The translations under genes and the position numbers were made by a program. The notes under the pieces were generated by a model, which was not told the origin of the DNA, did no database searches, and was given only the letters and a program-made list of their open reading frames with translations. From positions 1 to 26,424 of the forward strand of contig CANKMW010000015.1 in NCBI GenBank assembly GCA_947483555.1: a stretch of 26,424 bases of DNA. Reading direction: 5' to 3'. This DNA is from Myxococcales bacterium (GTDB lineage Bacteria; Myxococcota_A; Polyangia; Haliangiales; Haliangiaceae). Positions 1 to 25,535 of this stretch are shown in pieces; positions within the stretch are counted from its first letter, which is position 1, and each line of letters begins with the position of its first letter.

Positions 1-135
1 CTGCTTAACCAGGGGCTCGACTGGTACAGCGCGATCCCAAACATGAAGCCGGAGCGCCTCGAGCTGCTGATGGCGACGTTCGATGCCGGCGTCCGCCGTC
101 ACGCGGTCTTCCGCGAAATCTTCGGCGTCATATGA
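1..135 (+). CDS. 3' end of an upstream gene running off the window edge. Frame 1 is open from position 1 to a TGA at 133-135 and reads ...LLNQGLDWYSAIPNMKPERLELLMATFDAGVRRHAVFREIFGVI*. Product unknown.
   Basis: Open frame from the window start with high GC3 codon usage typical of the neighbouring genes. No recognisable motif. It overlaps the annotated start of the cytochrome ORF in another frame. Confidence 0.4.
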   Translation: MLNQGLDWYSAIPNMKPERLELLMATFDAGVRRHAVFREIFGVI

Positions 136-2077
136 GGGGATGCCTCAGCTGCAGGGCAAGCACGGCGTGACGCCGTGCGCGAAGTGCCACACCCAGGCCA
201 ACCGGCAGGGCCTGCGCACGTTCCTGGGCGCCGAGCGCACCTGCGGCGGCTGTCACGACGATCACCCGCACGGCCGGCTGCGGTCGGCGCTGACGCGCTG
301 CGATCGCTGCCACACCGAGACCGTGTGGTCACCGCAGAAGCCCACCAAGGACTTCGATCACGACGCCAAGGGCGACGCCGCGATGGCGCTCGAAGGCAGT
401 CATGCCGACGTCGCGTGCAGCAAGTGCCATCCCAAGGCGGCGTTCAAGCTGGCCGGCTTCGATGGTCAGTGCGGGACGTGCCACGACAGCCCGCACGACG
501 GTCAGCTGTTCGGCACCAAGAAGTGCACGAGCTGCCACTCGCCGCGCCTCGGCTCGCTCGACGCGATCCAGTTCGACCACAAGAAGCAGGCCGGCTACCC
601 GCTGCTCGGCGAGCACGCTCGGCTGCCATGCGCGACGTGCCACACCCCGGCGCTCGGCAAGCGCGAGCCCACCGGCCGCTGCGAGGCCTGTCACGCCGAC
701 GACAACAAGCACGGCCCGCGCTTCGCGGCGTTCGGTGACCCGCCGCTGTGCACCACGTGTCACTCGCAGCGGGGCTGGAAGAGCGGCTTCCAGTTCAACC
801 ACGAGACCGGCGCCGGGTTCGAGCTGACCGGCAAGCACGCCGCGGTCGGCTGCCGGGCCTGCCATCGCGGCGCACGAGCGTCGGAGTTCGAGCGCTTCGA
901 CGTGAAGAAGAACGGCTGCATGAGCTGCCACCAGCACCAGCGTGCGCACGGCGGCAAGTTCACCAACGACCGCTGTCTGACCTGCCACAACGAGGCGGGC
1001 AGCAAGCGCATGCGCAGCGAGTCCCTCGAGCTGTTCCACGGCCAGGGTTCGAAGTTCCCGCTCGCCAACGCCCACGCCAAGGTCGACTGCCAGCTGTGCC
1101 ACGTCAACGACGTCTATGCCGAGACGCCTCGCGAGTGCGGGGTGTCGTGCCACGAGGACTCGCTGCACCGCGGCAGCCTGGGACCGGAGTGCTCGCGCTG
1201 CCACGAGCCGGGACAGTGGCCCGCGGTGCGCTTCGATCACGGCGCCGACACCGACTGGCGACTGGCTGGCAAGCACGCCGCGATCAAGACCTGCGACGGC
1301 TGTCACCCGAACCGGATCTACGACGGCACGCCGCGAACCTGCGGCGCGTCGGGTTGTCACCAGCGCGACGACGTCCACGCCGGCCAGCTCGGGACCCGGT
1401 GCGATACGTGTCACCGCGACGACGGCGGCCTGTTGTTCCGGCACAACCGCGACGCCCGCTTCAAGATCGACGGCGGTCACGTGGGCGTGGCGTGCGCGAG
1501 CTGTCACGCGACCCGGACCTTCAAGCCGACCCGTCGCGACTGCGTCGGCTGCCACGCCGAGCCCGCGGTGCACGCCGGCCGCTACGGCACCGCGTGCGAG
1601 CGCTGCCACTCGACCACCCGCTTCACCGACGTCTCGGCGTTGCACGACGTCGGTGACTTCTCGCTGACCGGCGCCCACGATCGGGTCGCGTGTCGCGAGT
1701 GCCACCAGCGCGGCGAGCAGCGGCGGGGCTCCGGCAACCTGTGCATCACCTGTCATCGCGACGACGACATCCACCAGAACTCGCTGTCGCCGCGCTGCGG
1801 CGAGTGCCATGGCCAGCGCGCGTTCGCGCCGGCGCGCTTCGATCATCTCGCGGTCGGCTGCAACCTGCTGGGGCAACACCGCACGTTGCCGTGCGCCGAC
1901 TGCCACCGCAGCGGCAACTTCGGCGCCGTCTCGCCGCTGTGCGTGAGTTGCCATCGCGACGACGCGGCCGCGGTCGCCGTCCCCGACCACGGCCCCCTGC
2001 TCGACTGCGGGCGCTGTCACAACCCCGACGTCTGGGTACCGGCCACCGCGCTCGGGGGGCAGAGCATATGTCGTTGA
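83..2077 (+). CDS. Multiheme c-type cytochrome with 27 heme-binding motifs, arranged as nine tandem c7-like triheme domains. Alternative start ATG at 140, directly preceded by GAGGGG.
   Basis: The translation contains 25 CXXCH motifs plus one CX3CH (CGVSCH) and one CX4CH (CGASGCH). They fall in recurring triads with spacings of about 12-13 residues. Each triad is preceded by F-x-H...G-x-H...C-x-x-CH, as in triheme cytochrome c7 (PpcA-like) domains. No N-terminal signal peptide is encoded from either candidate start. Confidence 0.88.
   Translation: MPASAVTRSSAKSSASYEGMPQLQGKHGVTPCAKCHTQANRQGLRTFLGAERTCGGCHDDHPHGRLRSALTRCDRCHTETVWSPQKPTKDFDHDAKGDAAMALEGSHADVACSKCHPKAAFKLAGFDGQCGTCHDSPHDGQLFGTKKCTSCHSPRLGSLDAIQFDHKKQAGYPLLGEHARLPCATCHTPALGKREPTGRCEACHADDNKHGPRFAAFGDPPLCTTCHSQRGWKSGFQFNHETGAGFELTGKHAAVGCRACHRGARASEFERFDVKKNGCMSCHQHQRAHGGKFTNDRCLTCHNEAGSKRMRSESLELFHGQGSKFPLANAHAKVDCQLCHVNDVYAETPRECGVSCHEDSLHRGSLGPECSRCHEPGQWPAVRFDHGADTDWRLAGKHAAIKTCDGCHPNRIYDGTPRTCGASGCHQRDDVHAGQLGTRCDTCHRDDGGLLFRHNRDARFKIDGGHVGVACASCHATRTFKPTRRDCVGCHAEPAVHAGRYGTACERCHSTTRFTDVSALHDVGDFSLTGAHDRVACRECHQRGEQRRGSGNLCITCHRDDDIHQNSLSPRCGECHGQRAFAPARFDHLAVGCNLLGQHRTLPCADCHRSGNFGAVSPLCVSCHRDDAAAVAVPDHGPLLDCGRCHNPDVWVPATALGGQSICR
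170..2050 (+). repeat. Nine tandem ~210-bp coding repeats, one triheme c7-like domain each, inside the cytochrome gene. Boundaries approximate.
   Basis: Periodic recurrence in the protein of (F/L)xH...~20...CxxCH...~12...CxxCH...~13...CxxCH modules. Divergent at DNA level but clearly modular. Confidence 0.55.
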
Positions 2078-3714
2078 GGGCCCGCCGGCCGTGGATGGCC
2101 GTGGTGGTGGTGACGACGATCGCGGCGTGGCCGTCGGCGGCACGGGCGCAGTTCGTCGATCGAACCGTGGTGGTCGACGACGACGGTGGTGACGGCGACG
2201 CCACGACCTCGGCCGCGGCCGACCCCACCGCGTCGCCGCCGGCCGGCGATCAGGCCCACGACCTCGAGGTTCGCCTGACCCTGTCGAGCTTCGTGCACCG
2301 CGAGCTCGGGTCCGACGGCCCGCCGCTGGTCGCGGGTGGTGACGCGCCCGATGACGCCAGTCCGGTGCGGCGGTTCTTCGGTGACGCGCGGCTCGAGCTC
2401 CGCGCCGACCGGGTCGGCGGCGGCAGCCTGCGCTTCGATGGTCGCATCCGCGAGACCACCAGCGAGCGCTACCAGGCCGGCGCCGGCGCCGGCGCCGAGT
2501 ACGAGCTGCGCGCTGCGTTCTACCGGCGCGCGCTGGGCGGCAGCGAGCTGCGGGTCGGGCGGCTGGTGGTCGACGCGGTCGGAGCGACCCGGCTCGACGG
2601 CGTCGCCGTCGAGCGGCGGCTGGCGGCGGCGTGGTCCGCGACGCTGTTCGGCGGCGCGTATCCGCAGCGCGGCTCGCGCTCGATCACCACCGACTACGCG
2701 GCGATCCGGGAAGCGGGCGCGGCCACCGGCGCGCCGCTGGTGCCGATCGTCGGTGGCGGCGGGCTGTCGTACCGTCGGCCGTCGCTGTACGGCGACCTCG
2801 GCGTGGGCGGCATCCACGTGCTCCAGGACGTGCCCGGTGCCGCCGGCGTCGCCGCCAGCCGCGTGTTCACGAGCGCGAGCGGTTACTGGCGGCCGGCGCC
2901 GTGGATCGACGCCTACCACTACGGCGTGCTCGAGGTCGCCGGCGCCGGCGACGTGCGCTTGACCAATGGCAGCCTCGGCGTCGACGGCTTCCCGGTGCCG
3001 GCGCTGAAGCTGGCCCTGACCGCCCATCACGTCGACACCGAGTTGCTCGAGATCAGCGCCCGCAACGTGCTCGAAGATCCGGACCCGGCGGCGATGGGCG
3101 TGGTGCAGAACGACGCCGCCGTGGTGCGGGTGTCGCAGGACCTGGCCCGGGCCGGCGTCAGCCTCGCGCTCGCGCAAGCCCGGTTCGAGCTGTCGGCCAG
3201 CGGCGGCCTGCACCGCCGTCCGGCCATCGACGTGCCACTCGCCGACGGCGGCGTGGTGGCGTTCCCGGCCGCGTCGATGGCCGAGGCCACGCTGGCGGTG
3301 CTCGACCGCCGTTCGTTCGCCGGCCTGCGGGTGGCGCTGTCGGGGAGCGCGCTGGGGCCGATCGGCGACCAGGCGCCGAGCCGGTCACGCGGCGTGGCGG
3401 CGCGGCTGGTCGTGAGTCGTGCCGGTGAGCGCGGTGATGTCGAGCTCGACCTCGTGGCCCAGCGGTTCTCCGACCTCGGGCCGCGGACCGGCTGCACGAC
3501 GCTCGATCCGCTGGCCTGTCACGGCACCGCCCGCAGCACCGCGGCGCAGGTCGGCGGGCTGCTCACCCTGCGCGCCGGGTCCGAGTGGTTGCTGCTGATC
3601 GACGGTCACCTCGGGGTCCGCGACGCCGAGTCGTCGACCGTCGGCGCGATGGTCGAGTGGCCGCGCGTGGTTTCGGTGAGCGGCTTCGCGAGACTTTCGT
3701 GGCGCTATCGGTGA
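2068..3714 (+). CDS. Secreted hypothetical protein of 548 aa with a cleavable signal peptide and pervasive amphipathic beta-strand periodicity. Putative outer-membrane beta-barrel (porin-like).
   Basis: ATG at 2068 overlaps the cytochrome stop (2075-2077). N-terminus MSLRARRPWMAVVVVTTIAAWPSAARA|QF is a classic Sec signal with an AxA site. The mature protein is rich in alternating hydrophobic/polar segments (EVRLTLSSFV, ELRAAFYRRAL, RLVVDAVGATRLDGVAVERRL, GLLTLRAGSEWLLLIDGHLGV) with many Gly/Tyr/Trp. The C-terminus ...VSVSGFARLSWRYR has alternating aromatics. The track ORF 1690-2067 upstream in the same frame overlaps the cytochrome gene and is not coding. Confidence 0.72.
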   Translation: MSLRARRPWMAVVVVTTIAAWPSAARAQFVDRTVVVDDDGGDGDATTSAAADPTASPPAGDQAHDLEVRLTLSSFVHRELGSDGPPLVAGGDAPDDASPVRRFFGDARLELRADRVGGGSLRFDGRIRETTSERYQAGAGAGAEYELRAAFYRRALGGSELRVGRLVVDAVGATRLDGVAVERRLAAAWSATLFGGAYPQRGSRSITTDYAAIREAGAATGAPLVPIVGGGGLSYRRPSLYGDLGVGGIHVLQDVPGAAGVAASRVFTSASGYWRPAPWIDAYHYGVLEVAGAGDVRLTNGSLGVDGFPVPALKLALTAHHVDTELLEISARNVLEDPDPAAMGVVQNDAAVVRVSQDLARAGVSLALAQARFELSASGGLHRRPAIDVPLADGGVVAFPAASMAEATLAVLDRRSFAGLRVALSGSALGPIGDQAPSRSRGVAARLVVSRAGERGDVELDLVAQRFSDLGPRTGCTTLDPLACHGTARSTAAQVGGLLTLRAGSEWLLLIDGHLGVRDAESSTVGAMVEWPRVVSVSGFARLSWRYR

Positions 3715-3822
3715 CGGTGTACGCGGGCTGCGCAGCCGTTCCGGGACCTGCACATCGGCGCGGCGCAGGTAGGCGGAACTCCGTGATCGCCGCGCGGCAT
3801 CACGCTTGCTGGAATCTTCCAG

Positions 3823-6800
3823 GTGGCCTGGACGCGCTCTCTCCTGCTCGCGCTGGCCGCGCTCGGGCTGGCGGCGTGCGATCTGGGCTCGTTCGATCCG
3901 AGCGACGGCGGCATCCCGGTCCAGGATCAGACCACCTGCGCCGCCAGCTGTCACGGCTCCGACGGCGTCGCGGCGCCGCCGCGCGATACCTCGGGCGGCA
4001 CCGATCCGGCGACGACCGGCGTCGGTGCGCACCGCGCGCACCTCGAAACCTCGTCGTGGCACAAGCGCCTGGAGTGCAGCACCTGCCATGTGGTGCCCGA
4101 GGAGATCGGTGCGGCCGGACACCTCGACACCGCGTTGCCCGCCGAGCTCACGTTCGGTGGCCTCGGCGAGAACAGCGCCTGGAGCGGCACCTCGTGCACC
4201 AGCTACTGCCACGGCGCCGCGCTCACCGGCGGCGCGACGACCGAGCCGGTGTGGATCCAGAACGCGAGCACGCCGAGCGACTGCGGCTCGTGCCACGGCG
4301 CGCCGCCGCCGGCGCCACACCCGCAGGATGGTGAGTGCGCCACCTGCCACCCGACGATGAACCCGGGCGGCGGCCTCGAGATCGCGTACCCGGAGTTGCA
4401 CATCGATGGCCACCTCGACGTCGTCAACGCCGCCGCCTGCGATAGCTGCCACGGCGCGGCCGGCGATCCGGCGCCACCGCGCGACACCACCGGCGGCACG
4501 GCGACCGCGGCGCGCGGCGTCGGCGCCCACCAGGTCCACCTCGGTAGCTCGTCGTGGCACGCGCAGCTCGATTGCACGCAGTGTCACCGCGTGCCGGCGG
4601 GCATCTCGGATCTCGGCCACATCGACACGCCGCTGCCGGCCGAGATCTCGTTCGGCACGCTGGCCGGGAACGGAACCTGGAACGGCACCTCGTGCGCCGG
4701 CTCGTACTGCCACGGCGCGACCTTGACCGGCGGCAACCGGCGCACGCCGGAGTGGACGCGCGTCGACGGCAGCCAGAGCCAGTGCAGCTCGTGCCACGGC
4801 GCGCCGCCGCCGCCGCCGCACCCGACCAACAACAACTGCGGCACCTGTCACCAGACCATGGCGCCGGGCGGCGGCATGGTGATCGCGTACCCGGCGCTGC
4901 ACATCGACGGCAACGTCGACGTGATCGGCGGCCAGGCCTGCGACGCCTGCCACGGCGCCGCCGGCAACCCGGCGCCGCCGCGCGACACCACCGGTGGCAC
5001 CTCGACCACGCTGCGCACCGTCGGTGCCCACCGCCGCCACCTCGACGCCTCGACGTGGCGCAAGGACCTCGCCTGCGTCGAGTGCCACCGCGTGCCGGGC
5101 GCGACCGCCTCGATCGGCCACCTGGACACGCCGGCGCCCGCCGAGATCACGTTCGGCGCGCTGGCCGGCACCGCGAGCTGGAACGGCAACAGCTGCGCCA
5201 ACACCTACTGCCATGGCGCCACCCTGGCCGGCGGCACGGCGGTGAATCCGGTGTGGACCCAGGTCGACGGCGCGCAGGGGCAGTGCGGCTCGTGTCACGG
5301 CACCCCGCCGCCGCCGCCCCACCCGGTCGACCCCGACTGCGGCGCCTGCCACGCGACGATGACCGCCGGTCTGGGCCTGGTGATCACCGATCCGGCCCGC
5401 CACATCGACGGCAACCTCGACGTCACCGGCGATCAGGCCTGCGATGCGTGCCACGGCTCGGGCGGCGTCGCCGCGCCGCCGCGCGACAACGCCGGCAACA
5501 CCGCGACCACCGCGCGCGGCGTCGGCGCGCACCGCGCCCATCTCGGCGCCGGCGCCTGGTCGGCGACCATCGCCTGCACCGATTGCCATCGCGTCCCCGG
5601 GGCGGTCAGCGCGGTCGGCCACGTCGACACGCCGCTGCCAGCCGAGGTCCGGTTCAGCGCCCGCGCCGGGACCGCGACCCAGTGGAACGGATCGCGCTGC
5701 TCCAACAACTACTGCCACGGCGCCACGCTCGGCGGCGGCACCACCACGGCGCCGATCTGGAACCAGGTCGGCAGCGGCCAGGCGGCGTGCGGATCGTGCC
5801 ACGGCCGGCCGCCGCCGCCGCCGCATCCGGCGCAGGGCGATTGCGGGACGTGTCACGACACCATGACGCCCGGCAACAACACGACGATCACCGCGCCAGC
5901 CCGCCACATCGACGGCAACCTCGACGTCACCACCAACCAGGCCTGCGACGCGTGTCATGGCTCCGGCGGCGTGTCGGCCCCACCCGACGACACCGCCGGC
6001 AACAACAGCACCGCCGCGCGCGGCGTCGGCGCGCACCGGGCGCATCTCGGCACCTCGACGTGGCACCAGCAGGTCACCTGTACGCAGTGTCATCGGGTGC
6101 CGACCGGCGTGACCTCGGTCGGCCACACCGACACGCCGCTGCCCGCCGAGCTCACGTTCAGCGCGCTGGCCGCGGGCACGACCTGGAACGGGACCACCTG
6201 CGGCACCAGCTACTGCCACGGCGCGACGCTGGCCGCCGGTGGCACCGCGACGGCGCCGCTGTGGACGCGGGTCGATGGCACCCAGGCCGCCTGCACCGCC
6301 TGCCACGGCGCGCCACCGCCGCCGCCGCACCCGAACGATAGCAACTGCCAGGGCTGCCACGCCCCGGTCGCCGGGCCGGGCCTGACCATCGCCACCCCGG
6401 CGCTGCACATCGACGGCACGCTGCAGGTGACCAGCATCCACTCGGCGGGTTGGGCGCAGCCGACCCAGCACGGCACCGCGTTCAACGCGCAGGGACCGTC
6501 GAGCTGCGCCACCGCCAGCTGTCACGGCGTCGCGCTCACCGGCGGGGCCTCGAACGTGTCGTGCAACGGTTGCCACACCGGCTGGCAGACCACCTGCGTC
6601 TTCTGCCACGGCGGGACGGACAACGCGACCGGGGCGCCGCCCGAGAGCGTGGCCGGCCTCACCGCCGTCGCCGATCGTCACGTCGGGGGCCACACCGCGC
6701 ACGTCGCCGCCTCGACGACCCACGCCGCCTACGCCTGCAGCGCCTGTCACGTCACGCCGTCGAACGCGCTGAGCGCCGGCCACGTCGACGGCGTCGCCAA

Positions 6801-7197
6801 CGCCGAGGTGCGCTACTCGACGATGAACGCCGCCGCTACCTACAACGTGACCACCGCCGGCTGCGCCACGCTCTACTGCCACGGCAACGGCCGCACCAGC
6901 GGTGGCCTCGCGACCTGGACCTCGACCACCAACCTCGGCTGCGCCTCGTGTCACAACGATGGCGGCAATCCGCAGCTCATGTCCGGCGATCACAAGAAGC
7001 ACATCGCCGACGAGAACATGGCCTGCACCGAGTGCCACCAGACCGTGGTCAACGCCGCCGCGCAGATCATCGCCCCCGCCCTGCACGTCAACGGCCTCAA
7101 GGAAGTGAGGATGGCGGTCGGCGGCACCTGGAACCCGGCCAATCGCTCGTGCTCGGGCCTCCCCGGCGGCGCCTGCCACGGCACCAAGACCTGGTGA
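3823..7197 (+). CDS. Giant multiheme c-type cytochrome lipoprotein of 1124 aa with ~32 heme motifs. Five tandem ~167-aa modules carry paired CX4CH...CXXCH motifs of the Geobacter type (TIGR01904-like), followed by a distinct C-terminal domain with ~7 hemes.
   Basis: GTG start. The lipoprotein signal MAWTRSLLLALAALGLAAC has the lipobox L-A-A-C. Each module repeats CxxCH, CxxCH, CX4CH (CAGSYCH, CANTYCH, CSNNYCH, CGTSYCH; CX3CH CTSYCH in module 1), CxxCH, PPPPPHP, CxxCH. The C-terminal part adds CATASCH, CNGCH, CVFCH, CSACH, CATLYCH, CASCH and CTECH. The opposite-strand ORF 3385-7977 is Ala/Gly/Arg-rich junk. Confidence 0.9.
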   Translation: MAWTRSLLLALAALGLAACDLGSFDPSDGGIPVQDQTTCAASCHGSDGVAAPPRDTSGGTDPATTGVGAHRAHLETSSWHKRLECSTCHVVPEEIGAAGHLDTALPAELTFGGLGENSAWSGTSCTSYCHGAALTGGATTEPVWIQNASTPSDCGSCHGAPPPAPHPQDGECATCHPTMNPGGGLEIAYPELHIDGHLDVVNAAACDSCHGAAGDPAPPRDTTGGTATAARGVGAHQVHLGSSSWHAQLDCTQCHRVPAGISDLGHIDTPLPAEISFGTLAGNGTWNGTSCAGSYCHGATLTGGNRRTPEWTRVDGSQSQCSSCHGAPPPPPHPTNNNCGTCHQTMAPGGGMVIAYPALHIDGNVDVIGGQACDACHGAAGNPAPPRDTTGGTSTTLRTVGAHRRHLDASTWRKDLACVECHRVPGATASIGHLDTPAPAEITFGALAGTASWNGNSCANTYCHGATLAGGTAVNPVWTQVDGAQGQCGSCHGTPPPPPHPVDPDCGACHATMTAGLGLVITDPARHIDGNLDVTGDQACDACHGSGGVAAPPRDNAGNTATTARGVGAHRAHLGAGAWSATIACTDCHRVPGAVSAVGHVDTPLPAEVRFSARAGTATQWNGSRCSNNYCHGATLGGGTTTAPIWNQVGSGQAACGSCHGRPPPPPHPAQGDCGTCHDTMTPGNNTTITAPARHIDGNLDVTTNQACDACHGSGGVSAPPDDTAGNNSTAARGVGAHRAHLGTSTWHQQVTCTQCHRVPTGVTSVGHTDTPLPAELTFSALAAGTTWNGTTCGTSYCHGATLAAGGTATAPLWTRVDGTQAACTACHGAPPPPPHPNDSNCQGCHAPVAGPGLTIATPALHIDGTLQVTSIHSAGWAQPTQHGTAFNAQGPSSCATASCHGVALTGGASNVSCNGCHTGWQTTCVFCHGGTDNATGAPPESVAGLTAVADRHVGGHTAHVAASTTHAAYACSACHVTPSNALSAGHVDGVANAEVRYSTMNAAATYNVTTAGCATLYCHGNGRTSGGLATWTSTTNLGCASCHNDGGNPQLMSGDHKKHIADENMACTECHQTVVNAAAQIIAPALHVNGLKEVRMAVGGTWNPANRSCSGLPGGACHGTKTW
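3937..6432 (+). repeat. Five direct tandem repeats of ~501 bp (167 codons) inside the lipoprotein cytochrome gene. Each encodes a 5-heme module.
   Basis: Module starts at the conserved motif CD(A/S)CHG fall at aa 39, 206, 373, 540 and 708. That is a period of 167-168 aa, about 501 bp. Protein-level identity between units is high, so substantial DNA-level identity is expected. Confidence 0.8.
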
Positions 7198-7248
7198 TCG
7201 CGGCGGCGACCGCAACTCGGCGGGCTGCGCCGTGTCACGCTGGAGGTG

Positions 7249-8205
7249 ATGACGGGCCATGATCGCCTCCGGACGCTCACCGCCGGCGCGGTGGTCGCCG
7301 CCGCGTGCTCCGGGCCCGGCGGCGGCGGTGGCGAGCGCCTGATGGCCGAGATCCCGCCCGGGCCGCGGCCCGCGCCCGCGGCGCTGGTGGAGCCGGCCGC
7401 CGCCGGCCCGTTCTCGCCGGCGGCCTACGCGCGACACGTGCTGGCGTTGCGCGAGCGGCTCGCTGCCGCCGGTCACGGCGAGCTCAACATCCGCATCGAC
7501 GAGCCGTTCGTGGTGGTCGGTGACGATGAACCCGCCGTGCTGGCGCGGCGCGCGCAGACGGTGCGCTGGGCGGTCGAGCGGCTGGAGCGCGACTTCTTCG
7601 CGCAGCGACCGACCCGGATCCTGGACGTGTACCTGTTCTCCACCGCGGCCACCTACCAGCGCGGCGTGCGCGCGCTGACCGGCGCCGCGCCCGGCACGCC
7701 GTACGGGTTCTACTCGAGCGAGCACGACGGCCTGTTCATGAACATCGCCACCGGCGGCGGCACGCTGGTGCACGAGCTCGTGCACCCCTACGTCGAGGCC
7801 GACTTTCCCGGCGCGCCGGCGTGGCTCAACGAAGGGCTCGGCTCGCTGTTCGAGCAGAGCTCCGACGACGACGGCCACATCATCGGCCTCACCAACTGGC
7901 GCCTCGCCGGTCTCCAGCAGGCGATCCGCGCCGGCACGGTGCCCAGCTTCCGCGCGCTGACCAAGATGAGCGAGCACGCGTTCTACGTCCAGGACCGGGG
8001 CACCAACTACGCCCAGGCCCGCTACCTCCTCTACTACCTGCAGCAGGAGGGCAAGCTGGTCGACTTCTACCGCCGGTTCCGCGCCGCGCGCGCCGCCGAT
8101 CCGACCGGCTACGGCACCCTGGTCACGGCGCTCGGCGAGGCCGACATGGCGGGATTCCAGCGCCGCTGGGCGGCCTGGGTGCTGGAGCTGCGGTTCGACG
8201 ATTGA
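7249..8205 (+). CDS. Putative zinc metallopeptidase (HExxH), probable lipoprotein. Alternative GTG start at 7246.
   Basis: GGAGG sits immediately upstream. The N-terminus MTGHDRLRTLTAGAVVAAACSGPGGGGG resembles a lipoprotein signal with Cys followed by a Gly-rich linker. The motif HELVH, followed by NEGLGSLFE about 20 aa later, resembles a gluzincin HExxH...E arrangement. Confidence 0.7.
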   Translation: MTGHDRLRTLTAGAVVAAACSGPGGGGGERLMAEIPPGPRPAPAALVEPAAAGPFSPAAYARHVLALRERLAAAGHGELNIRIDEPFVVVGDDEPAVLARRAQTVRWAVERLERDFFAQRPTRILDVYLFSTAATYQRGVRALTGAAPGTPYGFYSSEHDGLFMNIATGGGTLVHELVHPYVEADFPGAPAWLNEGLGSLFEQSSDDDGHIIGLTNWRLAGLQQAIRAGTVPSFRALTKMSEHAFYVQDRGTNYAQARYLLYYLQQEGKLVDFYRRFRAARAADPTGYGTLVTALGEADMAGFQRRWAAWVLELRFDD

Positions 8206-10227: not shown

Positions 10228-10974
10228 TCACGCCACTGTCGCCCATTTCGCGTCGAGCCACGCTCGCAGCGCGACCAGATCCTCCGCCAGCGGCGCCTCG
10301 ACCACCAGCCTCCGCCCGTCCGGACGCGTCACCTCGAGGCCAGCGGCGTGCAGCGCCAGGCGCGCGCCCGGCGCGCCGTCGAGCATGCCGCGCAGCGTGC
10401 GCTTGCCGTACAGCGGATCGAACAGGATCGGGGCCTCGAGGCTGCGCAGGTGGACGCGGATCTGATGATGACGGCCGGTCAACGGGCGGGCCTCGAGCAG
10501 CGTGACGGTGTCGAGATCGACGATCCCTGGACTCGGCCCCGGCGCGGTCTCGCCCGGCACCGGGGCGCGCGACCACCGCGCCAGCGCGGTCATCTCGGTG
10601 ACCGACGGCTTGCCGCGCTCGCCGGCCACCGCCGGTCGGGCCTTTCCGCGCCGCGCCTCGACCACCGCGACCTCGACGGTCCGCTCGCCGGGCAGGTCGC
10701 CGGCCGCGAAGGCCAGGTAGCGCTTGTGCACGCGGCGGGCCGCGAAGGCATCGTTCAGCCAGCGGTGGGCGGCGGCCGACCGGGCCATCACCACCACCCC
10801 GGAGGTGTCCTTGTCGATGCGGTGCACCACCCACAGCGGCTCGCCGCGCGCGGCCTCGAGCCGGTGGCGCAGGGAGGTCGCCGGGTCGCCGTCGCGCTCC
10901 GGAATGACGGCGAGGCCGGCGGGCTTGGCCACCGCGATCAGCTCGTCGTCTTCGAACAGCAGCGGCGCGTTCAT
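10228..10974 (-). CDS. RluA-family pseudouridine synthase. A GTG at 11013 is an alternative start.
   Basis: Contains the catalytic signature HRIDKDTSG and the LTGRHHQIRVHL motif typical of RluA/TruC-family enzymes. The N-terminus MNAPLLFEDDELIAVAKPAGL matches the family's start. GGATAAG lies upstream of the ATG. Confidence 0.85.
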   Translation of the reverse strand: MNAPLLFEDDELIAVAKPAGLAVIPERDGDPATSLRHRLEAARGEPLWVVHRIDKDTSGVVVMARSAAAHRWLNDAFAARRVHKRYLAFAAGDLPGERTVEVAVVEARRGKARPAVAGERGKPSVTEMTALARWSRAPVPGETAPGPSPGIVDLDTVTLLEARPLTGRHHQIRVHLRSLEAPILFDPLYGKRTLRGMLDGAPGARLALHAAGLEVTRPDGRRLVVEAPLAEDLVALRAWLDAKWATVA

Positions 10975-11148
10975 GTCGCACTTATCCCACCCCGGCGCGG
11001 CGCGCGGAAGCACTCGCGTTTTGCCCCGTGCCGCGTCGCGACCGGTGCGTCGCGGGTGTTAGGATGCGATCGCATTCGGCCGGGGCATGTGCCCGCGCTC
11101 GTACCTCGAAGGGGAGGTGCCGCGGCGGGCGCGGCCCCACGAGGGATC

Positions 11149-14100
11149 ATGGCCACCAGCGACTTCGAAACCGCCGCTGCCACCGTCAAGAGTGCGCCGC
11201 ACTCGACCGCCGCCTGGGACGCGATCGAGGAGCTCGCGCGCGAGCACGAGAAACCCGACCACGTGGTCGCCCTCTACCGCGACGTGTTGCAGAAGGGCCT
11301 CGACCCGCAAGTCGTCGAGATGGTCGGCGAACGCGCCGGCGCATTCTGCGACGAATGGTTCGGCGACGACCCCAAGGTCGCCGAGGGCCTGCTGTCCAAG
11401 GTGCTCGAGCTGGCGCCGCAGTCGGAGTCGGCGCTCGGTCGCATGTCGGTGCTCCTGACCCAGAACGAGCGCTGGAACGATCTGCTCCGCCTCTACGACC
11501 GCGCGCTGACCGGCGTCAAGGACCCCGGCCGCCGCATCAAGCTGCTGCGCGAGGCGTCGCAGCTGGCCAAGGACGTCGCCAATCAACCCGAGCAGGCGAT
11601 CGCCTACCTGCAACGCCTGCTGCCGCTGACTCCGGACGACGCTCAGCTCGGACAGTCGCTCGAGCGGCTCCTCGAGCGCTACGAGCGCTGGGTCGATCTG
11701 ATCGCGCTGTGGGAGAGCCGCCTGGAGCGGCAGAGCAAGGCCGAGCGCGAGAAGAGCCGGGCCCGCATCGCGGCGTGCTGGCTCGACAACTTGCAGGACT
11801 CGGCCAAGGCGCTGGCCTCGGTGCGTCCGCTGCTGGCCGAGTCGGACGACGACAAGGAGGCGTGCACGCTGCTCGAGCGCATCATCGAGGCCGGCCACAC
11901 GCCAGCCAAGGAGCGCGAGGCGGCGCTCGACATCCTGCGCGCCCACTACGACGCGACCGCCCGGCCGCGCGAGGTGATCCGGGTCCTCGAGCGCGTGATC
12001 GAGCGCGATCCGGCGGGCAGCCAGGCGCTGCGCGAGGAGGCCGGCGCCCGGCTGGCCGAGCTCGACGACGACAGCGCGGCGATGGACCACTATGCCGCCT
12101 TGCTCGCCCTGACCCCCGACTCGTCGGTGACCCAGGAGAAGTTGCGGCAGCTGGCGCAGCGCTCGAACGGGTATGCGCGCTACGCGGCCGGGGTGGCCAC
12201 CGCCGCCGAGCACGCCATCATGCCGGCGCGCAAGGTCGAGCTGCTGTCCGAAGCCGCCCGCACCCGCCTCGATCTGCTCGACGATCCGGCGGGCGCCATC
12301 GAGCTGTACCAGCGCGCGCTCGAGCTGCCCGGTGCGGGCGAGAAGGAGCAACTGCACGTCTGCCGGCGGCTGTCGGAGCTGTACTCGCGGGTCGATCGAC
12401 CCCGCGAACGCTTCTCGATCCTCGAGCGGCTGGCGGCCCTCGAGCCGTCGGCGTCCACGCGCCGCGGCGTGATCGGCGAGGCCGCCCGCCTGGCCGAGAG
12501 CCTCGGCGAGACCGACAAGGCGCTCGGCCTGTGGCGGCAGCGCATCGATCGCGATCCCGACGACCTCGGCGCCCTCGACTCCGCCATCCTCCTGCTCGAG
12601 ACCTCGGCCCGCTGGACCGAGCTGGTGACGGCGCTCGACCAGCGCGCCGGCAAGAACGTGTCGGCGGCCCAGAAGCGCGCCGACCTCACGCGCATCGCGG
12701 TCGTGTTCCGCGATCCCGTCCGCGACGTGGAGCGCGCCATCGCCGCCTGGCAGCGGGTGCAGACCGAGTTCGGCGACGACGCCGAGACCGTCGGCGCGCT
12801 CACCGACCTGCTGGCCGAGGTGTCGCGCTGGCGCGAGCTCGCCGATCTGCTCGAGCGCACCAGCGGTCGCGATGTCGCCCGCACCACGCATCGCCTCAAC
12901 CGCCTGGGCGAAGCGCTGGCCACCCATCTCGGTGAGCCGGCCCGCGCCCTGGCCGCCTTTCGCGCCGCGCTGGCGATCGATCCGGTCAACGATCAGGCTC
13001 GGGCCGGACTGCTGACGCTGCTCGAGGTCGCCGCGTTTCGTAAGCCCGCCGCCGACGCGCTGGCGACCAGCTATCGCGAGAACCAGGACTGGGCCGGGTT
13101 CCTCAAGCTGTTGCCGGCTCGGCTCGCCGATGCCCCCGACGATCGGACGCGGCTCGCCCTCATGCGCGAGGCGGCCTACATCCAGAGCAACAACACCAAC
13201 GATCCGGCCGGCGCGCTGAACAGCCTGGCGATGGCGTTTCCGCTCGCGCCCCGCGATGGCGTGATGGAGGGCCAGATCCTCGACCTGGCCGCTCGCACCG
13301 GCAACCCCGGCGCGGCGGCGGCGTCGAGCGCCCTCGAGGCGGCGATCCGTGCGCTCGCCGACGATCCCGACGAGGCCGCGCGCATGCGCCTGGTGCGCGC
13401 CGCCTTGCTCGAGGACAGCCTGGGCGACGAAGCCGCCGCGCTCGACGAGTACGTGACCGTGTTCCGGCACGACCGCGGCAACCAGCTCGCGGCCACCGCG
13501 GTGGTCCGGCTGGCGCCCCGGCGCGGCAAGTGGGCCGACGCCGCCGCCGCGTTGCTCGGCTACGCGGCCGCCAAGGAGCGCCTCGACGAGGGGCTGTACG
13601 CCAGCTACGAGCAGGCCGGGGCCGCGGATGCCGGCGCGATCGACGCGTCGGCCGCGGCGCTCGAGCAGGTCGCGGACGCCAGCGGCCTGCCGCCGGCGGT
13701 GGCGGCGCTGGTGTGGTCGCGGATCGCGATGTGGCACCGCGGCCGGCGTGATGATGGGCGCGCCGCGGTCGCCGCGTTCCGCCGCTCGCTCGCCGCCGGC
13801 GGCGATCGAGCCGACACGTTGCGCGCGGTGGCCGAGCTGGTGCGTCCGGACGGGCCGAGCGCGGCCTTGCTCGACGTGCTGCGCCGGCTGTCCGATGCCG
13901 ATCCCCGCGATCTCGACGTGCTGGTCGAGGCCGCCGACACCGCCAGCCGGCTCGGAGACCGCGAGGCCTCGGTCACCATCCTCGGCCAGGTGCTGGGCCG
14001 GGCCACCGGCGCGTGGCGCGGCTCGGCGGCCGTGCAGTCGTCACGTCCCGCCGAGGCGGTGGTGCGCTGGGCCATCGACGGCCTGGTCGAGCTGCATCGG

Positions 14101-17100
14101 GTCGCCGGCCGGCCGCGGGTCGCGCTCGATCTGCTCACCGAGTCGGCGCGCCTGCCGTTCGACGTCGCCACCCGCCGTGATCTGCGGCTGCGCGCGGCGG
14201 CGATGGCGTCCGGAGACCTGCGCGACAACGGCGCGGCGATCGACATGTATCGCGGCGTGCTCGCCGAGAGCCCCGGCGATCTCGAGATCATCGGTCGGCT
14301 GGGCGCGCTGCTCGACGTCGAGCGTCGCCACGCCGAGCTGCTCGGCCTGCGCCACGTCCAGCTCGGGCTCGAGGTCGAGCCGGCCAGCCGCCTCGACCTG
14401 CGTCTCGACATCGCGCGGCTGGTCGGGGTCGTCGAGGAGACCGGCGGTCGCTACGAGGCCCTGATCGCCAACCTCGCCGATCAACCCGGTCACGACGCAT
14501 CGATCGATGCCGCCCACAGCTTCCTGGCCGGCAAGGGCCAGCACAAGGCGCTCGCCGACCTGCTCGAGGAGCAGTCCGGCAAGCTCGAGGCCGGCGGCGA
14601 TGTCGCCAAGGCCGCGCGCCTGTGGGCCCGCTTCGCCGTGGTCGCCGAGCGCGACTCGCGCGAGATCGATCGCGCGATCGCCGGCCATCGCCGGGTCGTC
14701 ACCCTGGCGCCGACCCAGGAGTCGTTCCGGGCCCTGGCCCGGTTGCAGCTCGATCGCGGTCAGCCGGCGGCGGCGGTGCCGTGGTTCGAGAGCCTGCTGG
14801 CCACGGTGACGGGCGCCGAGCGGCAGACGATCGTCGATCAGCTCGCCCGCGCCCACATCGCGGCCAAGCAGGACGATCGGGCCATCGCCGCGATCGAGAG
14901 CGCGCTCGACGACCGCGAGCCGGCGCTCGAGCTGCGGCTCTTGCTCGCCGAGCTGTACCGCAAGGCCGAGCAGTGGGAGCCGCTGGCTCGCCACCTCACC
15001 CGCTCGCTGTCGTGGTTCGGCGACGACAAGGGGCCCGAGCTGGCCCGCGAGGCCGCCGCGATCTACACCGACAAGCTCGGTGCGCCGGCCAAGGCCATCC
15101 CGGCGCTCGAGAAGGCGCTGGCGCTGGATCCGACCGACAAGGACATGCGAGCCCAACTCGCCGTCGGGCTGCGCGCCGCCGGCCGGCTGGTCGAAGCCCG
15201 CGCCATCCTCGCCGAGCTGATCGAGGGCTTCGGTCGCCGCCGCTCGCCGGAGCGGGCCCAGCTCCACGTCGAGCTGGCCAAGGTCGCCCATGCCGAAGGC
15301 AAGGTCGACGAGGCGCTGACCGAGATGGAGGCGGCGTCCAAGATGGACGTCAACAACGCGCGCGTCCAGCGCGAGCTCGCCGAGCTGTGTCGCGCCGCCG
15401 GACAGGTCGACAAGGCGGAGCGCACCTACCGGGCCCTGCTCCTCATCGTCCGCCGCCAGCCGCCCGGCGACGACGAGGCCGCCGTCGGTCAGAGCGAGGT
15501 GCTGTTCGAGCTGTCGCGGCTGGCCGGCTCGCATGGCGACGCCACCCAGGCCAAGGAGCTGCTCGAGAGCGCGGTCGATGCCGCGGTGCAGTCCGACGTC
15601 GAGGTCCGGCGCCTGCGCCGCAGCCTGATCGCCCACAACGAGGCCGAGACGCTCATGCGCGTGCTCGAGCTGCGCCTCGCGGCCACCAGCGAGGCCGCCA
15701 GCCAGGCCCGGCTGTACGCCGACATGGCCGACGTGCTCGATGGCTCGCTCGCGCGCTCGGCCGATGCGCTCGATGCGATCATCAAGGCCATCAACCACGC
15801 CCCGTGGCGGCTCGACCTGCACGACAAGGCCTGGCTCCTGGCCCGCAAGTCGGGCGAGACCAAGAAGCTGGTCGAGGCGGTCGAGACCGTGGTCGATCGG
15901 CTGCGTCGCAAGGACGATCCACCGCTGGTGGCGTCGCTGTTGCTGCGCGCCGGTGAGGCGCTCGAGAACGATGCCAACGACCTGCCGGCGGCCGCGGCGC
16001 TGTACCGGCGCGTCGAGATGCTCGGCGAACGCCTGGCCGAGGCGTACTACGCCCAGGCCCGAGTCGCCGGCGCGCTCGGCGACGACGAGCAGCAGGCCCG
16101 CGCGCTCGACAACATGCTCAAGCTCGCCAGCAGCGACGGCGGCGACGCCTCGCCGGCGCAGACCGACGCGCTGTACCGGCTGGCGGAGATCTTCATCGCC
16201 ACCCCGGCGCGTCGCGCCCAGGGCATCGATCTGATCGAGCGCGCCTTCGCGGCCGAGCCGCGCTGGGCCCAGGCCGGGCGCGTGCTGCGCGGCGCATCGT
16301 CGACCGATGCCAGCGACGCCCGCGTGATGACGCTCTACGAGCGGGTGGCGCGCAACGGTGGCGACAGCGAGCTGTTGCTCGACTTTCTCGACAAGCGGGC
16401 GCGGCTCGCCGACGCGACCCCGGCCCAGGTCCGCGAGGCGGTCGATCTGGCCGTCGAGATGGCCCACCACGAGCGCGCCGAAGCGCTGCTGGAGCGCGCC
16501 GTCGTGGCGGCTCGCGACTCCGCCGATGGCGTCGGGGGCGCGGTGTGGGCGGTCCTCGCGCTCACCGATCGTCGCCTCGCCGGCGGCGATCTCGCCGCCG
16601 CCCGCGAGCTGGTCTACGAGATCATCGGCGTCGCCGAGCCGGCCGAGATGGATCCGCTGATCGGGCGGGTGGCCGCCCGCGCGGCGCAGGAGCGCGCTGG
16701 CCACGGTCTGGCCGCCGAGATGTACGAGCTGCTCCGCGAGCGCGCACCGGCGGATCGCGCGGTGTGGGAGCCGCTGGTCGCCCTCTACCGCGACATGGGT
16801 GATGGTGACCGGCTGGCGAGCGTGATCTCGTCGACGCTCCCCAACCTCACCGATCCCGGCGAGCGCAACGCCCTGCGCCGTGCCCACGCCGAGTACTTGA
16901 TCGAGTCACTGAAGCGGCCGCACGACGCCGCCGACGTGCTGCGCGACGCGCTGCGCGACGATCCCGACGATCTCGGCGCCGCCGTGCTGCTGGAGAAGAC
17001 GTTGCGCGCGCTCGGTGACGACGACGGGCTGACCGAGTTCTTGTGGGCCCGCTTCGACGACGCCGTCGCTCGCAACAGCCGCGAATCGACGCTCGACGTG

Positions 17101-18915
17101 GCGTCTCGCCTCGGGCCGCTGGTCGAGTCGACGGGCGGCAACGCGGCCAAGGTCTACCGCACGGCGCTCGGCGTCGCTCCCGACGATCGCGAGCTGCTGC
17201 GTCGCGTCGTGGTGTCGCTCACCGCCGACGACGATCCGCGCGAGTCGGCGGCGTTGATGGAGCGGCTGCTGGCGGTCGAGACCCCGGAGCAGGCGCCGGC
17301 GCTGTGCTGGCGTCTGGCCAGCGCCTACGAGGCCGCCGAGGACTGGCCCGGCGTCCAACGCACCCTGGCCGCCGCGCACAAGGCGGCGCCCGACGACGCC
17401 GCGATCCACGACCGCCTCGAGCAGTTCTACCGTGACACCCAGCAATGGGTCGAGCTGGCCCAGTTGATGATCAGCGACGCCGCCCGCACCACCGACGTCG
17501 CGGTCGCGGTCGATCGCCTGCGCGAGGCCGCGGCGGTGTACTCGGGGGTGCTCGGCCAGCCGCTGGCCGCCGCCGAGGCGCTGCGGGCCGCCCGCGCTCG
17601 CCAGCCCGAGACGCCGGCGCTGTCGGCCGAGCTGGCGGCCGCGCTGGCCGCCGGTGGCGATCAACGCGGCGCGGTGACCTCGCTGAGCGACGCGCTGGAG
17701 GGGCCCGATGGTCCCGACAGCGCGCCGGTCAAGGGCACCGCGCGCGTCGACCTCTTGCTGCTGCGGGCCAGCCTGCGCCAGCAACTCGGCGACGAGGACG
17801 CGGCGGTCATCGATCTCGACGACGCCTACCAGCTCGATCGCGGCCGGGCCGCCGCCGCGCTGGGCGACGGCCTCGAGCGCATGCGGGGGCGGGCCGAAGC
17901 GGCCGGCGACATGAGCAGCGAACGCACCGCGACCCTGCGGCTGGCCCAGCTGCTCACCGAGCACGGCGAGGTCGAGCGCGCACGGGATCTGCTGGTCGGG
18001 TGGATCGAGCGCATGCCCAGCGACCCCGATCCGCTCTATCTGCTGCGCGACATGGACGCCGGCATCGAGCACTGGGACGGCGTCATCGCCGCGTGCACCC
18101 GCCTGGCCTACATCGTCGAGGGCGAGCCGCAGGTGCAGGCGGCGCTCGACGTCACCGATGCGTCGGCGCGCGCCGGCAAGCCGGCCGATGCGATCGCGGT
18201 GCTCGAGATGGTCCACCTGGCCCAGCCCGGCGCCGACGCGATCCGCCTCAAGCTGCGCGAGCAGTACGAGGCGGCCGGCGCCCACCGCGAGCTGGCGGTC
18301 ATCCTGATGGCCGACGCCGACCACGGCACCGACACCCAGGCACGGTTCGCGGCCTACAAGCGGGCCGCCGAGCTGTTCCTGGCCGCCGGCGATGCGTCGG
18401 CGGCGGCGGTCCCGGCCGGCAAGGCCGCCGAGCTGGCGCCCGACGATCACGTCACCGCCATGCTGCTGGTCGACGTGTTGATCGGCTCCGGCCGCACCGA
18501 GGAGGCGGCGACCGCGCTCGAGACCGCGATCGCGGCCCAGAAGAAGCGCACGCCCGAGCTGGCCATGATGCAGCAGCGGATGGGGCGGGTCGCCGGCATG
18601 CTCGGCGACCGTGACGGCCAGCTCGGCTGGCTCAAGAAGGCGTTCGACGTCGATCGCAAGAGCGGCGAGATCGCCGCCGAGCTGGCTCAGCTCGCGACCG
18701 AGATCGGCGACTACGAGCTGGCCCTCAAGCCGTTGCGTGCGATCACGCTGATGGACAATCCGTTGCCGATCACCCGCCCGATGGCGCTGCTCTGGGAAGC
18801 GAAGATCGAGCACGCGCGTGGCAACCGCGCCAAGGCCGAGCTGTGGGCCAAGAAGGCGCTGCGCGAGGATCCGCACTTCTCCGAGGCCCAGCAGTTCCTC
18901 GACGAGCTGCCCTGA
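11149..18915 (+). CDS. Giant cytoplasmic TPR/alpha-solenoid repeat protein of 2588 aa, hypothetical.
   Basis: ATG at 11149 is preceded by GAGGGA. No signal peptide. The whole length is helical-repeat-like (Leu/Ala/Glu/Arg/Asp-rich with recurring A-x-x-x-Y/L...P-D/N hairpin motifs, e.g. [56 protein letters not shown]). The track ORF start at 10348 overlaps the convergent rluA gene and is not real. Three long antisense ORFs inside this gene are Arg/Gly-rich artefacts. Confidence 0.85.
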
Positions 18916-18955: not shown

Positions 18956-19321
18956 TCAGCGCGGCCGCAAGGTCCGCGCGATCAGCTCGCGGCGGCCGGT
19001 GACGCCGAGCTTGCGGTACACGCTCGCGAGCTGGTTGGCGACCGTGCGGCGCGAGGTGGCGCGCCGACGCGCGACCTCGGCGTTGCTGGCGCCGCCGAGC
19101 ACCATGGCGGTGACCTCGCGCTCGGCAGGGGTCAGGGCGTCGAGCTCGGCGTGCTCGACAAGGGCGATCGCGAACCCGACCACCACCAGGTCCGCGATCG
19201 TGCCGGCCCGGAGCTGGTCCGGAACCGCCAGCCCGCGCCGGGTGCGGCTCACGAGGTCCCGCGCGCTGACCTCGGACTGGCTCGGTGCCAGGCAGGGACA
19301 CTCGCCGACTGTCGAGATCAC
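18956..19321 (-). CDS. Small LuxR/GerE-family helix-turn-helix transcriptional regulator of 121 aa with no receiver or ligand domain.
   Basis: The C-terminal 60 aa [52 protein letters not shown] is a canonical LuxR-type HTH. The GTG start at 19321 overlaps the HNH gene stop by 4 nt (GTGA). Confidence 0.68.
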
Positions 19322-23335: not shown

Positions 23336-23383
23336 CGCCATTCGGGCGTTGTCAGCAGCGCCGCGGCGGGCCAAGAATGCGTC

Positions 23384-25258: not shown

Positions 25259-25535
25259 TCGATCCGCACGCCGGGCGAACACTTCGCGATTGAGATCGGC
25301 GCGCGCGACGAGCAAGGTGGAACTCGGACGGGTTGTCCGGGAAACGGACGATATGCGGATCGGCCCCTCAGGCAGGCGAGCACCAGCCGCCTGAGGTGAT
25401 GGTGCAGGTGGGCGGGACGGGGGAGCAGGTGGGGGCGGGCTGAGGGGCCGACAGCGGGGGGGCATGTGGGTGTTCGCCAGGGCGCCGGATGGCGTATCCT
25501 CTGGTGCGCGCATGTCCAACGAGAAAGAGAAGACC

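Follow-up and report, generated by a model that had tools for sequence, protein, structure and literature searches.

A repeat-built lipoprotein cytochrome with 32 or 33 predicted hemes in a conserved, conduit-like gene module of Kofleriaceae and Haliangiales

Porin-cytochrome conduits, such as MtrCAB of Shewanella and the OmaB-OmbB-OmcB and Ext clusters of Geobacter, are encoded by co-oriented and translationally coupled genes for a secreted cytochrome, a large β-barrel and a lipoprotein cytochrome. MtrA is the protein found inside the MtrB barrel, and in both characterised systems the lipoprotein cytochrome, MtrC or OmcB, is the surface component (for MtrCAB of Shewanella, PDB 6R2Q). Bis-His six-coordinate hemes are of the electron-transfer type, as opposed to the catalytic type. 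Reports of porin-cytochrome clusters with divergent sequences are now appearing for other phyla as well (10.64898/2026.05.27.727921). Here, we analyse a stretch of 26,424 nucleotides (nt) from a Myxococcales bacterium of the Haliangiaceae (GenBank assembly GCA_947483555.1, contig CANKMW010000015.1, positions 1 to 26,424 of the forward strand; hereafter the window), gene 3 of which codes for a predicted lipoprotein built from a modular five-heme unit and carrying 32 or 33 predicted hemes. Genes 1, 2 and 3 of the window follow the same cluster logic as the conduits named above, and we consider it probable that the repeat region of gene 3 encodes most of a lipid-anchored, heme-packed wire, the product of the last gene in a conduit module conserved in Kofleriaceae and Haliangiales, with a likely location at the cell surface.

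Several heme-rich proteins resemble the product of gene 3 in part. The GSU1996-type nanowire cytochromes, made of c7 triheme domains, are likewise a single chain of tandem heme modules, and the cytochrome c7 family PF14522 matches gene 3 in 6 stretches (111 bits, cutoff 24.8), covering the final three hemes in every unit. However, the GSU1996-type unit has three hemes and that of gene 3 five, TIGR04257 (nanowire_3heme), at 15.6 bits, falls short of its cutoff of 40, and no PDB chain gives a detectable sequence match: when the PDB was queried by sequence and by profile, using the complete protein, an alignment of 55 homologs and a unit alignment, nothing but spurious zinc-finger/LIM hits came back. 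OmcS, OmcE and OmcZ share with gene 3 a high heme density, little secondary structure and a proposed role in long-range electron transfer, but they lengthen by polymerising small subunits, whereas the gene 3 protein would do so by adding modules within one lipid-anchored chain; no match to them in sequence or fold was found, the fold comparison having been made on a low-confidence, heme-less model. Similar in size and heme count is the uncharacterised Desulfuromonadia ‘cluster 2’, with a 27-heme representative in G. metallireducens that is a predicted extracellular wire of about 350 Angstrom encoded outside porin-cytochrome operons (Soares et al., bioRxiv 10.1101/2024.01.05.574438); likened to gene 3 by its description, this cluster may be the same family. 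Secreted cytochromes with more than 100 heme motifs have been described from metagenome-assembled genomes (MAGs) of activated sludge, and multiheme proteins from Myxococcota (PMC11495043).

Gene 3 (Table 1) shows the GC content by codon position of a real gene (0.64/0.64/0.93, in a window of 73% GC), and the long antisense and out-of-frame open reading frames (ORFs) lying over it are the usual artefacts of high-GC DNA. Its product has what is expected of a multiheme c-type cytochrome, that is, a Sec-type export signal together with many CXXCH-type motifs: a motif scan identified 32 CXnCH heme-attachment motifs and one possible extra site (see below), and the protein contains no free Cys besides the lipobox Cys and a C-terminal pair. 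A first-pass annotation of the window had called the protein a lipoprotein, and this call held up. The sequence LAAC at residues 16 to 19 fits the lipobox pattern [LVI][ASTVI][GAS]C, and Cys19 is conserved in 54 of 55 six-unit homologs, the alignment of which was also used to read His conservation. The residue that follows (position +2; residue 20, nt 3880-3882) is Asp, as in 41 of the 55 homologs, Asn being found in another 8. Scans for promoters and terminators gave no signal exceeding the expectation from shuffled sequence.

Five units lie head to tail in this one ORF (nt 3937-6444 in all), with lengths of 167, 167, 167, 168 and 167 amino acids (aa) in a codon-aware alignment, a spacing of 498-504 nt between the five copies in a repeat search and an autocorrelation maximum at a shift of 501 (0.50, against a background of about 0.37). 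A hidden Markov model (HMM) built from the five units scores each of them at 278-299 bits, far beyond chance. Tandem Repeats Finder, with its maximum period of 500, missed the array, and autocorrelation, the repeat search and the unit HMM were used instead. The tandem 501-bp units of the first-pass annotation are thereby confirmed, with coordinates and motif order largely as it gave them; its count of five was right for the tandem units proper, but the array continues with a half unit and with a diverged sixth unit, which scores 80.5 bits over HMM positions 1-162 and keeps the five-motif order of units 2-5. That order, earlier given for every unit, fails in unit 1, where sites 1 and 3 are CX3CH motifs (CAASCH and CTSYCH) and the proline stretch reads PPPAPHP. 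The CX4CH and CXXCH motifs are paired, about 25-30 residues apart, at residues 291/321, 458/488, 626/656, 793/824, 895/914 and 1014/1040, and in unit 1 the CX3CH at residue 125 pairs with the motif at residue 154.

Table 1. Positions of gene 3, of its sequence elements and of the neighbouring features at the 5' end of the window.
Feature	Position (nt)	Strand	Description	Basis
Gene 3	3823..7197	+	Predicted lipoprotein multiheme c-type cytochrome, 1124 aa	ORF and translation, motif list
Gene 3 signal peptide and lipobox	3823..3879	+	Lipobox L-A-A-C, Cys19; MAWTRSLLLALAALGLAAC followed by DLGS	
Unit 1	3937..4437	+	aa 39-205; five hemes, deviant copy	Alignment, unit HMM
Unit 2	4438..4938	+	aa 206-372; five hemes: CxxCH, CxxCH, CX4CH, CxxCH, PPPPPHP, CxxCH	
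Unit 3	4939..5439	+	aa 373-539; five hemes	
Unit 4	5440..5943	+	aa 540-707; 168 aa, five hemes	
Unit 5	5944..6444	+	aa 708-874; five hemes	
Half unit	6445..6594	+	aa 875-924; CX4CH (CATASCH) and CxxCH (CNGCH)	
Unit 6	6595..7122	+	aa 925-1100; diverged full unit: CVFCH, CSACH, CATLYCH, CASCH, CTECH	
C-terminal C-X7-CH	7150..7179	+	C1110...C1118-H1119; possible heme site	Conservation in homologs, where the spacing is 4-7
Gene 2	2068..3714	+	Signal-peptide protein, 548 aa; predicted outer-membrane β-barrel, at least 22 long strands	
Gene 1	83..2077	+	Multiheme cytochrome, 27 CXnCH motifs; 5'-truncated relative to orthologs	PF14522, PF14537 and PF02085 hits
Tail of unrelated ORF	1..135	+	C-terminal tail, IS4-transposase-like (weak)	Frame-1 translation, tblastn

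The repeated CX4CH...CXXCH pairing identifies gene 3 as a member of the TIGR01904/PF09698 family, as had been proposed: an HMM search gave 178.8 bits for TIGR01904.2 (cutoff 27) and 54.3 bits for PF09698 (cutoff 21.7), each in 6 stretches, so that both curated cutoffs are far exceeded. The domain was first defined in Geobacter sulfurreducens, and its presence in this form had been thought unusual outside Geobacter; instead, the nearest relatives of gene 3 are in Myxococcota. Among 5.8 billion proteins searched, close homologs at E <= 1e-10 number at least 990, the named ones coming mostly from Kofleriaceae, Myxococcales and Deltaproteobacteria MAGs, plus Anaeromyxobacter dehalogenans; none of the named close homologs is from Geobacter. 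The existing name of these proteins is “CxxxxCH/CxxCH domain-containing protein”, and we found no functional study of the family in the literature. Judged by its sequence, gene 3 reads as an ordinary member of an already named, functionally uncharacterised cytochrome family, in a moderately interesting context. The family definition covers only a motif pair of 36-73 residues, whereas gene 3 repeats a module of 167 aa that holds five heme sites and five conserved distal His residues, and this module appears to be the true building block of the CxxxxCH...CXXCH family and offers a concrete structural target.

Besides the Cys and His residues of the CXnCH motifs, each of units 1-5 has five spare His residues that are conserved in 96-100% of the 55 homologs, two of them in GVGAHxxHL and one each in GHxD(T)PLPAE, PPPxPHP and LHIDG; in unit 1 these are His 70, 73, 100, 166 and 193. 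The corresponding residues of unit 6 are His 957, 960, 987, 1057 and 1088, and two more, H873 (at the end of unit 5, just ahead of the segment) and H883, belong to the half unit. With five for each full unit and two for the half unit, the 32 CXnCH motifs are equalled by 32 positionally conserved spare His residues. The C-terminal C-X7-CH element is also conserved (C1118 in 100%, C1110 and H1119 in 96% of the homologs) and, with the spare H967 (95%), may form a 33rd, non-canonical heme site. Since there is one conserved spare His for each heme motif, all the hemes are predicted to be bis-His six-coordinate, which suggests that the 32, and possibly 33, hemes, if attached and ligated as the motifs predict, are all electron-transfer centres. 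The proline-rich PPPPPHP segments had been described as joining the heme modules; as their His is among those conserved in 96-100% of the homologs and is needed for the ligand count, it is probably a heme ligand, one of five distal ligands per unit, and the segment is better seen as a probable ligand-bearing element than as a linker.

The genes upstream of gene 3 place it in a wider context. The gene 2 protein is on record as P0121, and its predicted barrel belongs to no Pfam or NCBIfam family; the coding signal is strong in genes 2 and 3, with a GC content of 0.92-0.93 at third codon positions. For comparison, we assembled 20 loci, consisting of the locus of the closest homolog (L001) and of 19 others from a scan of species-representative genomes with a 21-sequence barrel alignment, all 19 being Kofleriaceae, Haliangiales, Myxococcales or Deltaproteobacteria MAGs. 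The three-gene order is conserved in the 20 loci, a 30-heme cytochrome gene being followed by the barrel gene and then by the gene of a 6-unit cytochrome with 31-33 hemes, and in L001 the three genes overlap by 4 bp (start/stop). The 6-unit cytochrome gene is directly 3' of the barrel gene in 14 of the 15 loci that are long enough. The gene 1 orthologs have 30 motifs in roughly 768 aa and an N-terminus with a Sec signal peptide. In 19 of the 20 orthologous loci gene 1 is preceded by a gene (at 2811-4112, plus strand, in L001, and at the equivalent position in 18 others) whose product, about 430 aa long, carries a signal peptide, has a bacterial SH3 domain in its N-terminal part and matches no family in its C-terminal half; this SH3-domain gene appears to be a fourth component of the module. 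We found no paper describing the four-gene module in Kofleriaceae or Myxococcota in the literature on multiheme cytochromes and porin-cytochrome systems.

Two of the loci, L009 (9545-16627) and L014 (10518-17893), carry about 7 kb with four or five unrelated genes between the barrel and the repeat cytochrome. Among these intervening genes is a kinase-like gene, as judged by its N-terminal sequence.

A secreted cytochrome, a barrel and a lipoprotein cytochrome together make up the porin-cytochrome organisation, and we therefore read the repeat protein as the lipid-anchored wire of a conduit. On this reading, the chain would consist of six homologous five-heme modules and a two-heme half module, each full module having two N-terminal CxxCH sites and then a c7-like triheme part (CX4CH, CxxCH, CxxCH), with the five invariant His residues of GVGAHxxHL, GHxD, PPPxPHP and LHIDG supplying the second axial ligand of each heme. 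The resulting continuous chain of bis-His hemes would be suited to the passage of electrons along the wire and unsuited to substrate binding. By analogy with MtrCAB and OmaB-OmbB-OmcB, the barrel would insulate a cytochrome that crosses the outer membrane, the three proteins presumably forming one complex, and the lipoprotein would most likely be a wire at the cell surface that passes electrons to, or receives them from, extracellular partners.

Extending this, we tentatively propose that the four-gene module is a previously undescribed type of envelope-spanning conduit, specific to Kofleriaceae and Haliangiales, with about 62 hemes and two single-chain wires of periplasmic length; we regard this as quite possible, though not as the likelier outcome. 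Most of the remaining interest of the locus lies in this conserved Kofleriaceae module, a plausible variant of the porin-cytochrome conduit with a family-less barrel and a 30-heme partner. If the proposal is true, it would provide a route of extracellular electron transfer in a lineage usually regarded as aerobic predators, and the module is a testable candidate for such transfer in the myxobacteria of soil, groundwater and activated sludge.

Several observations weigh against the conduit reading. By sequence, both cytochromes fall outside the Mtr, Oma and Omc families: the C-terminus of gene 1 (aa 504-649) is weakly DmsE/MtrA-like, with 33.5 bits for TIGR03508 against a cutoff of 192.2, the matches to PF22113 are partial and the barrel has no match in Pfam or NCBIfam. 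As these sequence tests failed, the module is likened to a conduit by its working and not by family membership. A 37%-identical homolog in Anaeromyxobacter lacks both the barrel neighbour and the other neighbours of the module, and the possibly related Geobacter cluster mentioned above was reported outside porin-cytochrome operons (10.1101/2024.01.05.574438). Moreover, the conserved Asp at +2 would be a signal for inner-membrane retention if the E. coli rule applies. Finally, gene 1 is truncated in the window, having 27 motifs in place of 30 and lacking the signal peptide and first three hemes of the adjacent secreted cytochrome in the orthologous loci.

This truncation raises the possibility that the module is here a decaying remnant, in which an insertion or rearrangement took away the SH3 gene along with the 5' part of gene 1 and left the repeat cytochrome with no working partner, or that a chimeric assembly produced the junction where the window begins. 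The similarity of gene 1 to its counterparts begins only at aa 19-23 (nt ~140-146) in the 20 orthologous loci, with the exception of L020, where it starts from aa 90, and from aa 22 on gene 1 shares 66% identity with its L001 ortholog. The module in the window has no SH3 gene. The tail encoded at the very start of the window is 41% identical over 44 aa (tblastn, E 2e-3) to annotated IS4-family transposases and matches no Pfam family. The module is thus cut at the 5' end of the window, either by an insertion or rearrangement in the genome or by an artefact of assembly, so that in this genome or assembly the conduit may not be functional. Nevertheless, genes 2 and 3 are intact, with the third-position GC content given above and with none of the conserved Cys and His residues lost; the resemblance to transposases is weak; and after a simple insertion of an IS element the missing 5' part could lie immediately upstream, beyond the window. 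We consider decay or chimerism possible, though less likely than not.

The main rival as to the working of the protein, which we rate as unlikely, anchors gene 3 elsewhere: the lipoprotein would be retained at the periplasmic face of the inner membrane as a periplasm-spanning wire that feeds the gene 1 cytochrome, the latter lying in the barrel or being exposed. In E. coli, Asp at +2 after the lipidated Cys causes retention of lipoproteins in the inner membrane by Lol avoidance, and the distribution of Asp and Asn at this position in the homologs (see above) fits such an arrangement. The only MtrA/DmsE-like similarity in the module is that of the gene 1 C-terminus, which agrees with a gene 1 product inside the barrel, and about 30 hemes would make a wire of sufficient length to cross the periplasm, judging by the 350 Angstrom predicted for the 27-heme protein. 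However, the rules of lipoprotein sorting differ between phyla and that of E. coli may not hold in Kofleriaceae, MtrC and OmcB are both surface components, and the TIGR03508 match falls far under its cutoff. We keep to the surface wire as the preferred reading.

An unlikely, indeed improbable, alternative to this wire is that the gene 3 protein is no conduit component at all, serving instead as an electron store (‘capacitor’) or as a catalytic multiheme reductase or oxidase that acts on a soluble substrate. A capacitor role has been proposed for very heme-rich proteins (PMC11495043), and the Anaeromyxobacter relative does without a barrel neighbour. Against this, the conserved distal His available for every heme site leaves no obvious open coordination site, no catalytic domain was detected in NCBIfam and Pfam scans, and the tight linkage of the gene with those of a barrel and of another cytochrome, which is conserved and involves translational coupling, is what would be expected of a conduit. 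A capacitor role is, besides, compatible with a role as a wire.

The first-pass annotation had also described the units as near-identical and had seen in the five copies an expansion, able to grow or shrink by recombination and prone to assembly collapse. The units are in fact well diverged: pairwise identities between them are 67-75% for DNA, 53-64% for protein and 61-72% at third codon positions, and the longest exact run common to two units is 15-33 nt, depending on the pair. With no exact repeat longer than 33 nt, a collapse of the assembly at the gene 3 locus is unlikely and the repeats are diverged enough for correct assembly, which is of use for assembly quality control. The array lacks the high DNA identity and the long exact repeats of a recent expansion. 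Where two units have the same residue, they share its codon at a rate of 0.696, compared with 0.630 expected from the codon usage of the gene and with 0.745 between gene 3 and an ortholog in a different MAG species (70% protein identity). With 93% GC at third positions, much of the identity there is expected from codon bias alone, and because codon sharing between units is below the ortholog level and near the codon-usage expectation, synonymous sites are close to saturation. The annotation had staked its proposal against two outcomes, units diverged at the DNA level with no recent duplication and no HMM match to the domain; the former is what we observed, and the latter is not.

Comparison with other species points in the same direction. 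Each unit of gene 3 best matches the same-numbered unit of the closest six-unit homologs, P0007 (an ortholog, 70% identical), P0008, P0009 and P0016, with identities of 62-74% that exceed those between units within gene 3. This unit-to-unit correspondence means that the six-unit array is older than the split of lineages that are now 65-70% identical, and the sequences argue that it was inherited without concerted evolution. We conclude from them that the repeat array is real, old and stable, having arisen by an old tandem duplication and diverged later. Six is the modal number of units among the 120 best hits (78 of 121 proteins with the query included; range 4-10), which does not agree with a view of five copies as an expansion.

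In the wider family, an HMM search without filters among 1.84 billion cluster representatives found 2,517 proteins that match the unit profile, 1,893 of them at E <= 1e-10, and the 137 best cluster representatives, when re-scanned, contained 3-30 full units; five or six units are a modest number for the family. P0001 and P0002 carry ten units, to which units 1-3 of gene 3 map as 1-3 and units 5-6 as 9-10, so that the extra units were inserted in the middle of the array. Recent duplications, marked by highly similar units, are seen in a few relatives (units 3 and 7 of P0089, 99%; units 2 and 3 of P0090, 91%) but are rare, a unit pair with at least 90% identity having been found in only 4% of the 137 representatives. 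The length of the wire would thus evolve by gain and loss of whole modules, between 3 and 30 units, in arrays that are mostly old and stable, and changes in array length occur only over long evolutionary timescales. Variation in unit number, as suggested earlier, is borne out by the relatives, but variation in length by recombination is unlikely in gene 3. We accordingly give scarcely any credence to gene 3 as a recently expanded, high-identity contingency locus in which unit number, and with it wire length, varies between strains: relatives do differ in unit number and a few hold highly similar or mid-array extra units, but the divergence of the units, the near saturation of synonymous sites, the positional orthology across lineages, the rarity of highly similar unit pairs and the constancy of six units in 14 of the 15 syntenic loci of sufficient length in our view refute it for this locus.

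The largest of the representatives is the lipoprotein P0220, in which 30 units and 151 heme motifs are spread over 5,264 aa; another giant lipoprotein of five-heme units is P0221 (4,309 aa, 23 units, 126 motifs). The units of both are diverged too, with a median identity of about 51-57%.

N-x-S/T sequons had been said to recur in every unit of gene 3. The protein has 14, where shuffled sequences have 7.9 +/- 2.5 (p about 0.02), yet unit 3 has none, and the PglB-type extended sequon D/E-x-N-x-S/T is absent from the protein. With an enrichment this marginal and sequons missing from a unit, N-glycosylation was not retained as a candidate.

The rest of the window holds genes of other kinds. Immediately 3' of gene 3, the gene at 7246-8205 (plus strand) shows weak, sub-threshold similarity to Peptidase_MA_2 and DUF1570; it stands beside the module in none of the 20 related loci and is probably unrelated. 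A TPR-repeat protein of 2,855 aa, counted from the first GTG, is encoded at 10348-18915 (plus strand), in a frame open from 9799, and matches only TPR families. Three genes at 22271-25216 and 25464-26408 (both plus strand) code for a trypsin-like serine protease, a protein with a proprotein-convertase P-domain and PA14, and an FHA-GGDEF diguanylate cyclase, none of which is conserved beside the cytochrome module in other loci. On the minus strand, the ORF at 19318-20712 codes for a protein of 463 aa in which an HNH nuclease region is combined with a RuvA C-terminal domain; the HNH region has weak similarity, far below the cutoffs, to IscB and to PT-DNA restriction endonucleases. The 5' end of this ORF is overlapped by a tandem repeat of the hexamer GCCGGT at 19514-19613, with 16 copies and 70% matches, which can alternatively be described by a period of 30 nt in 3.3 copies.

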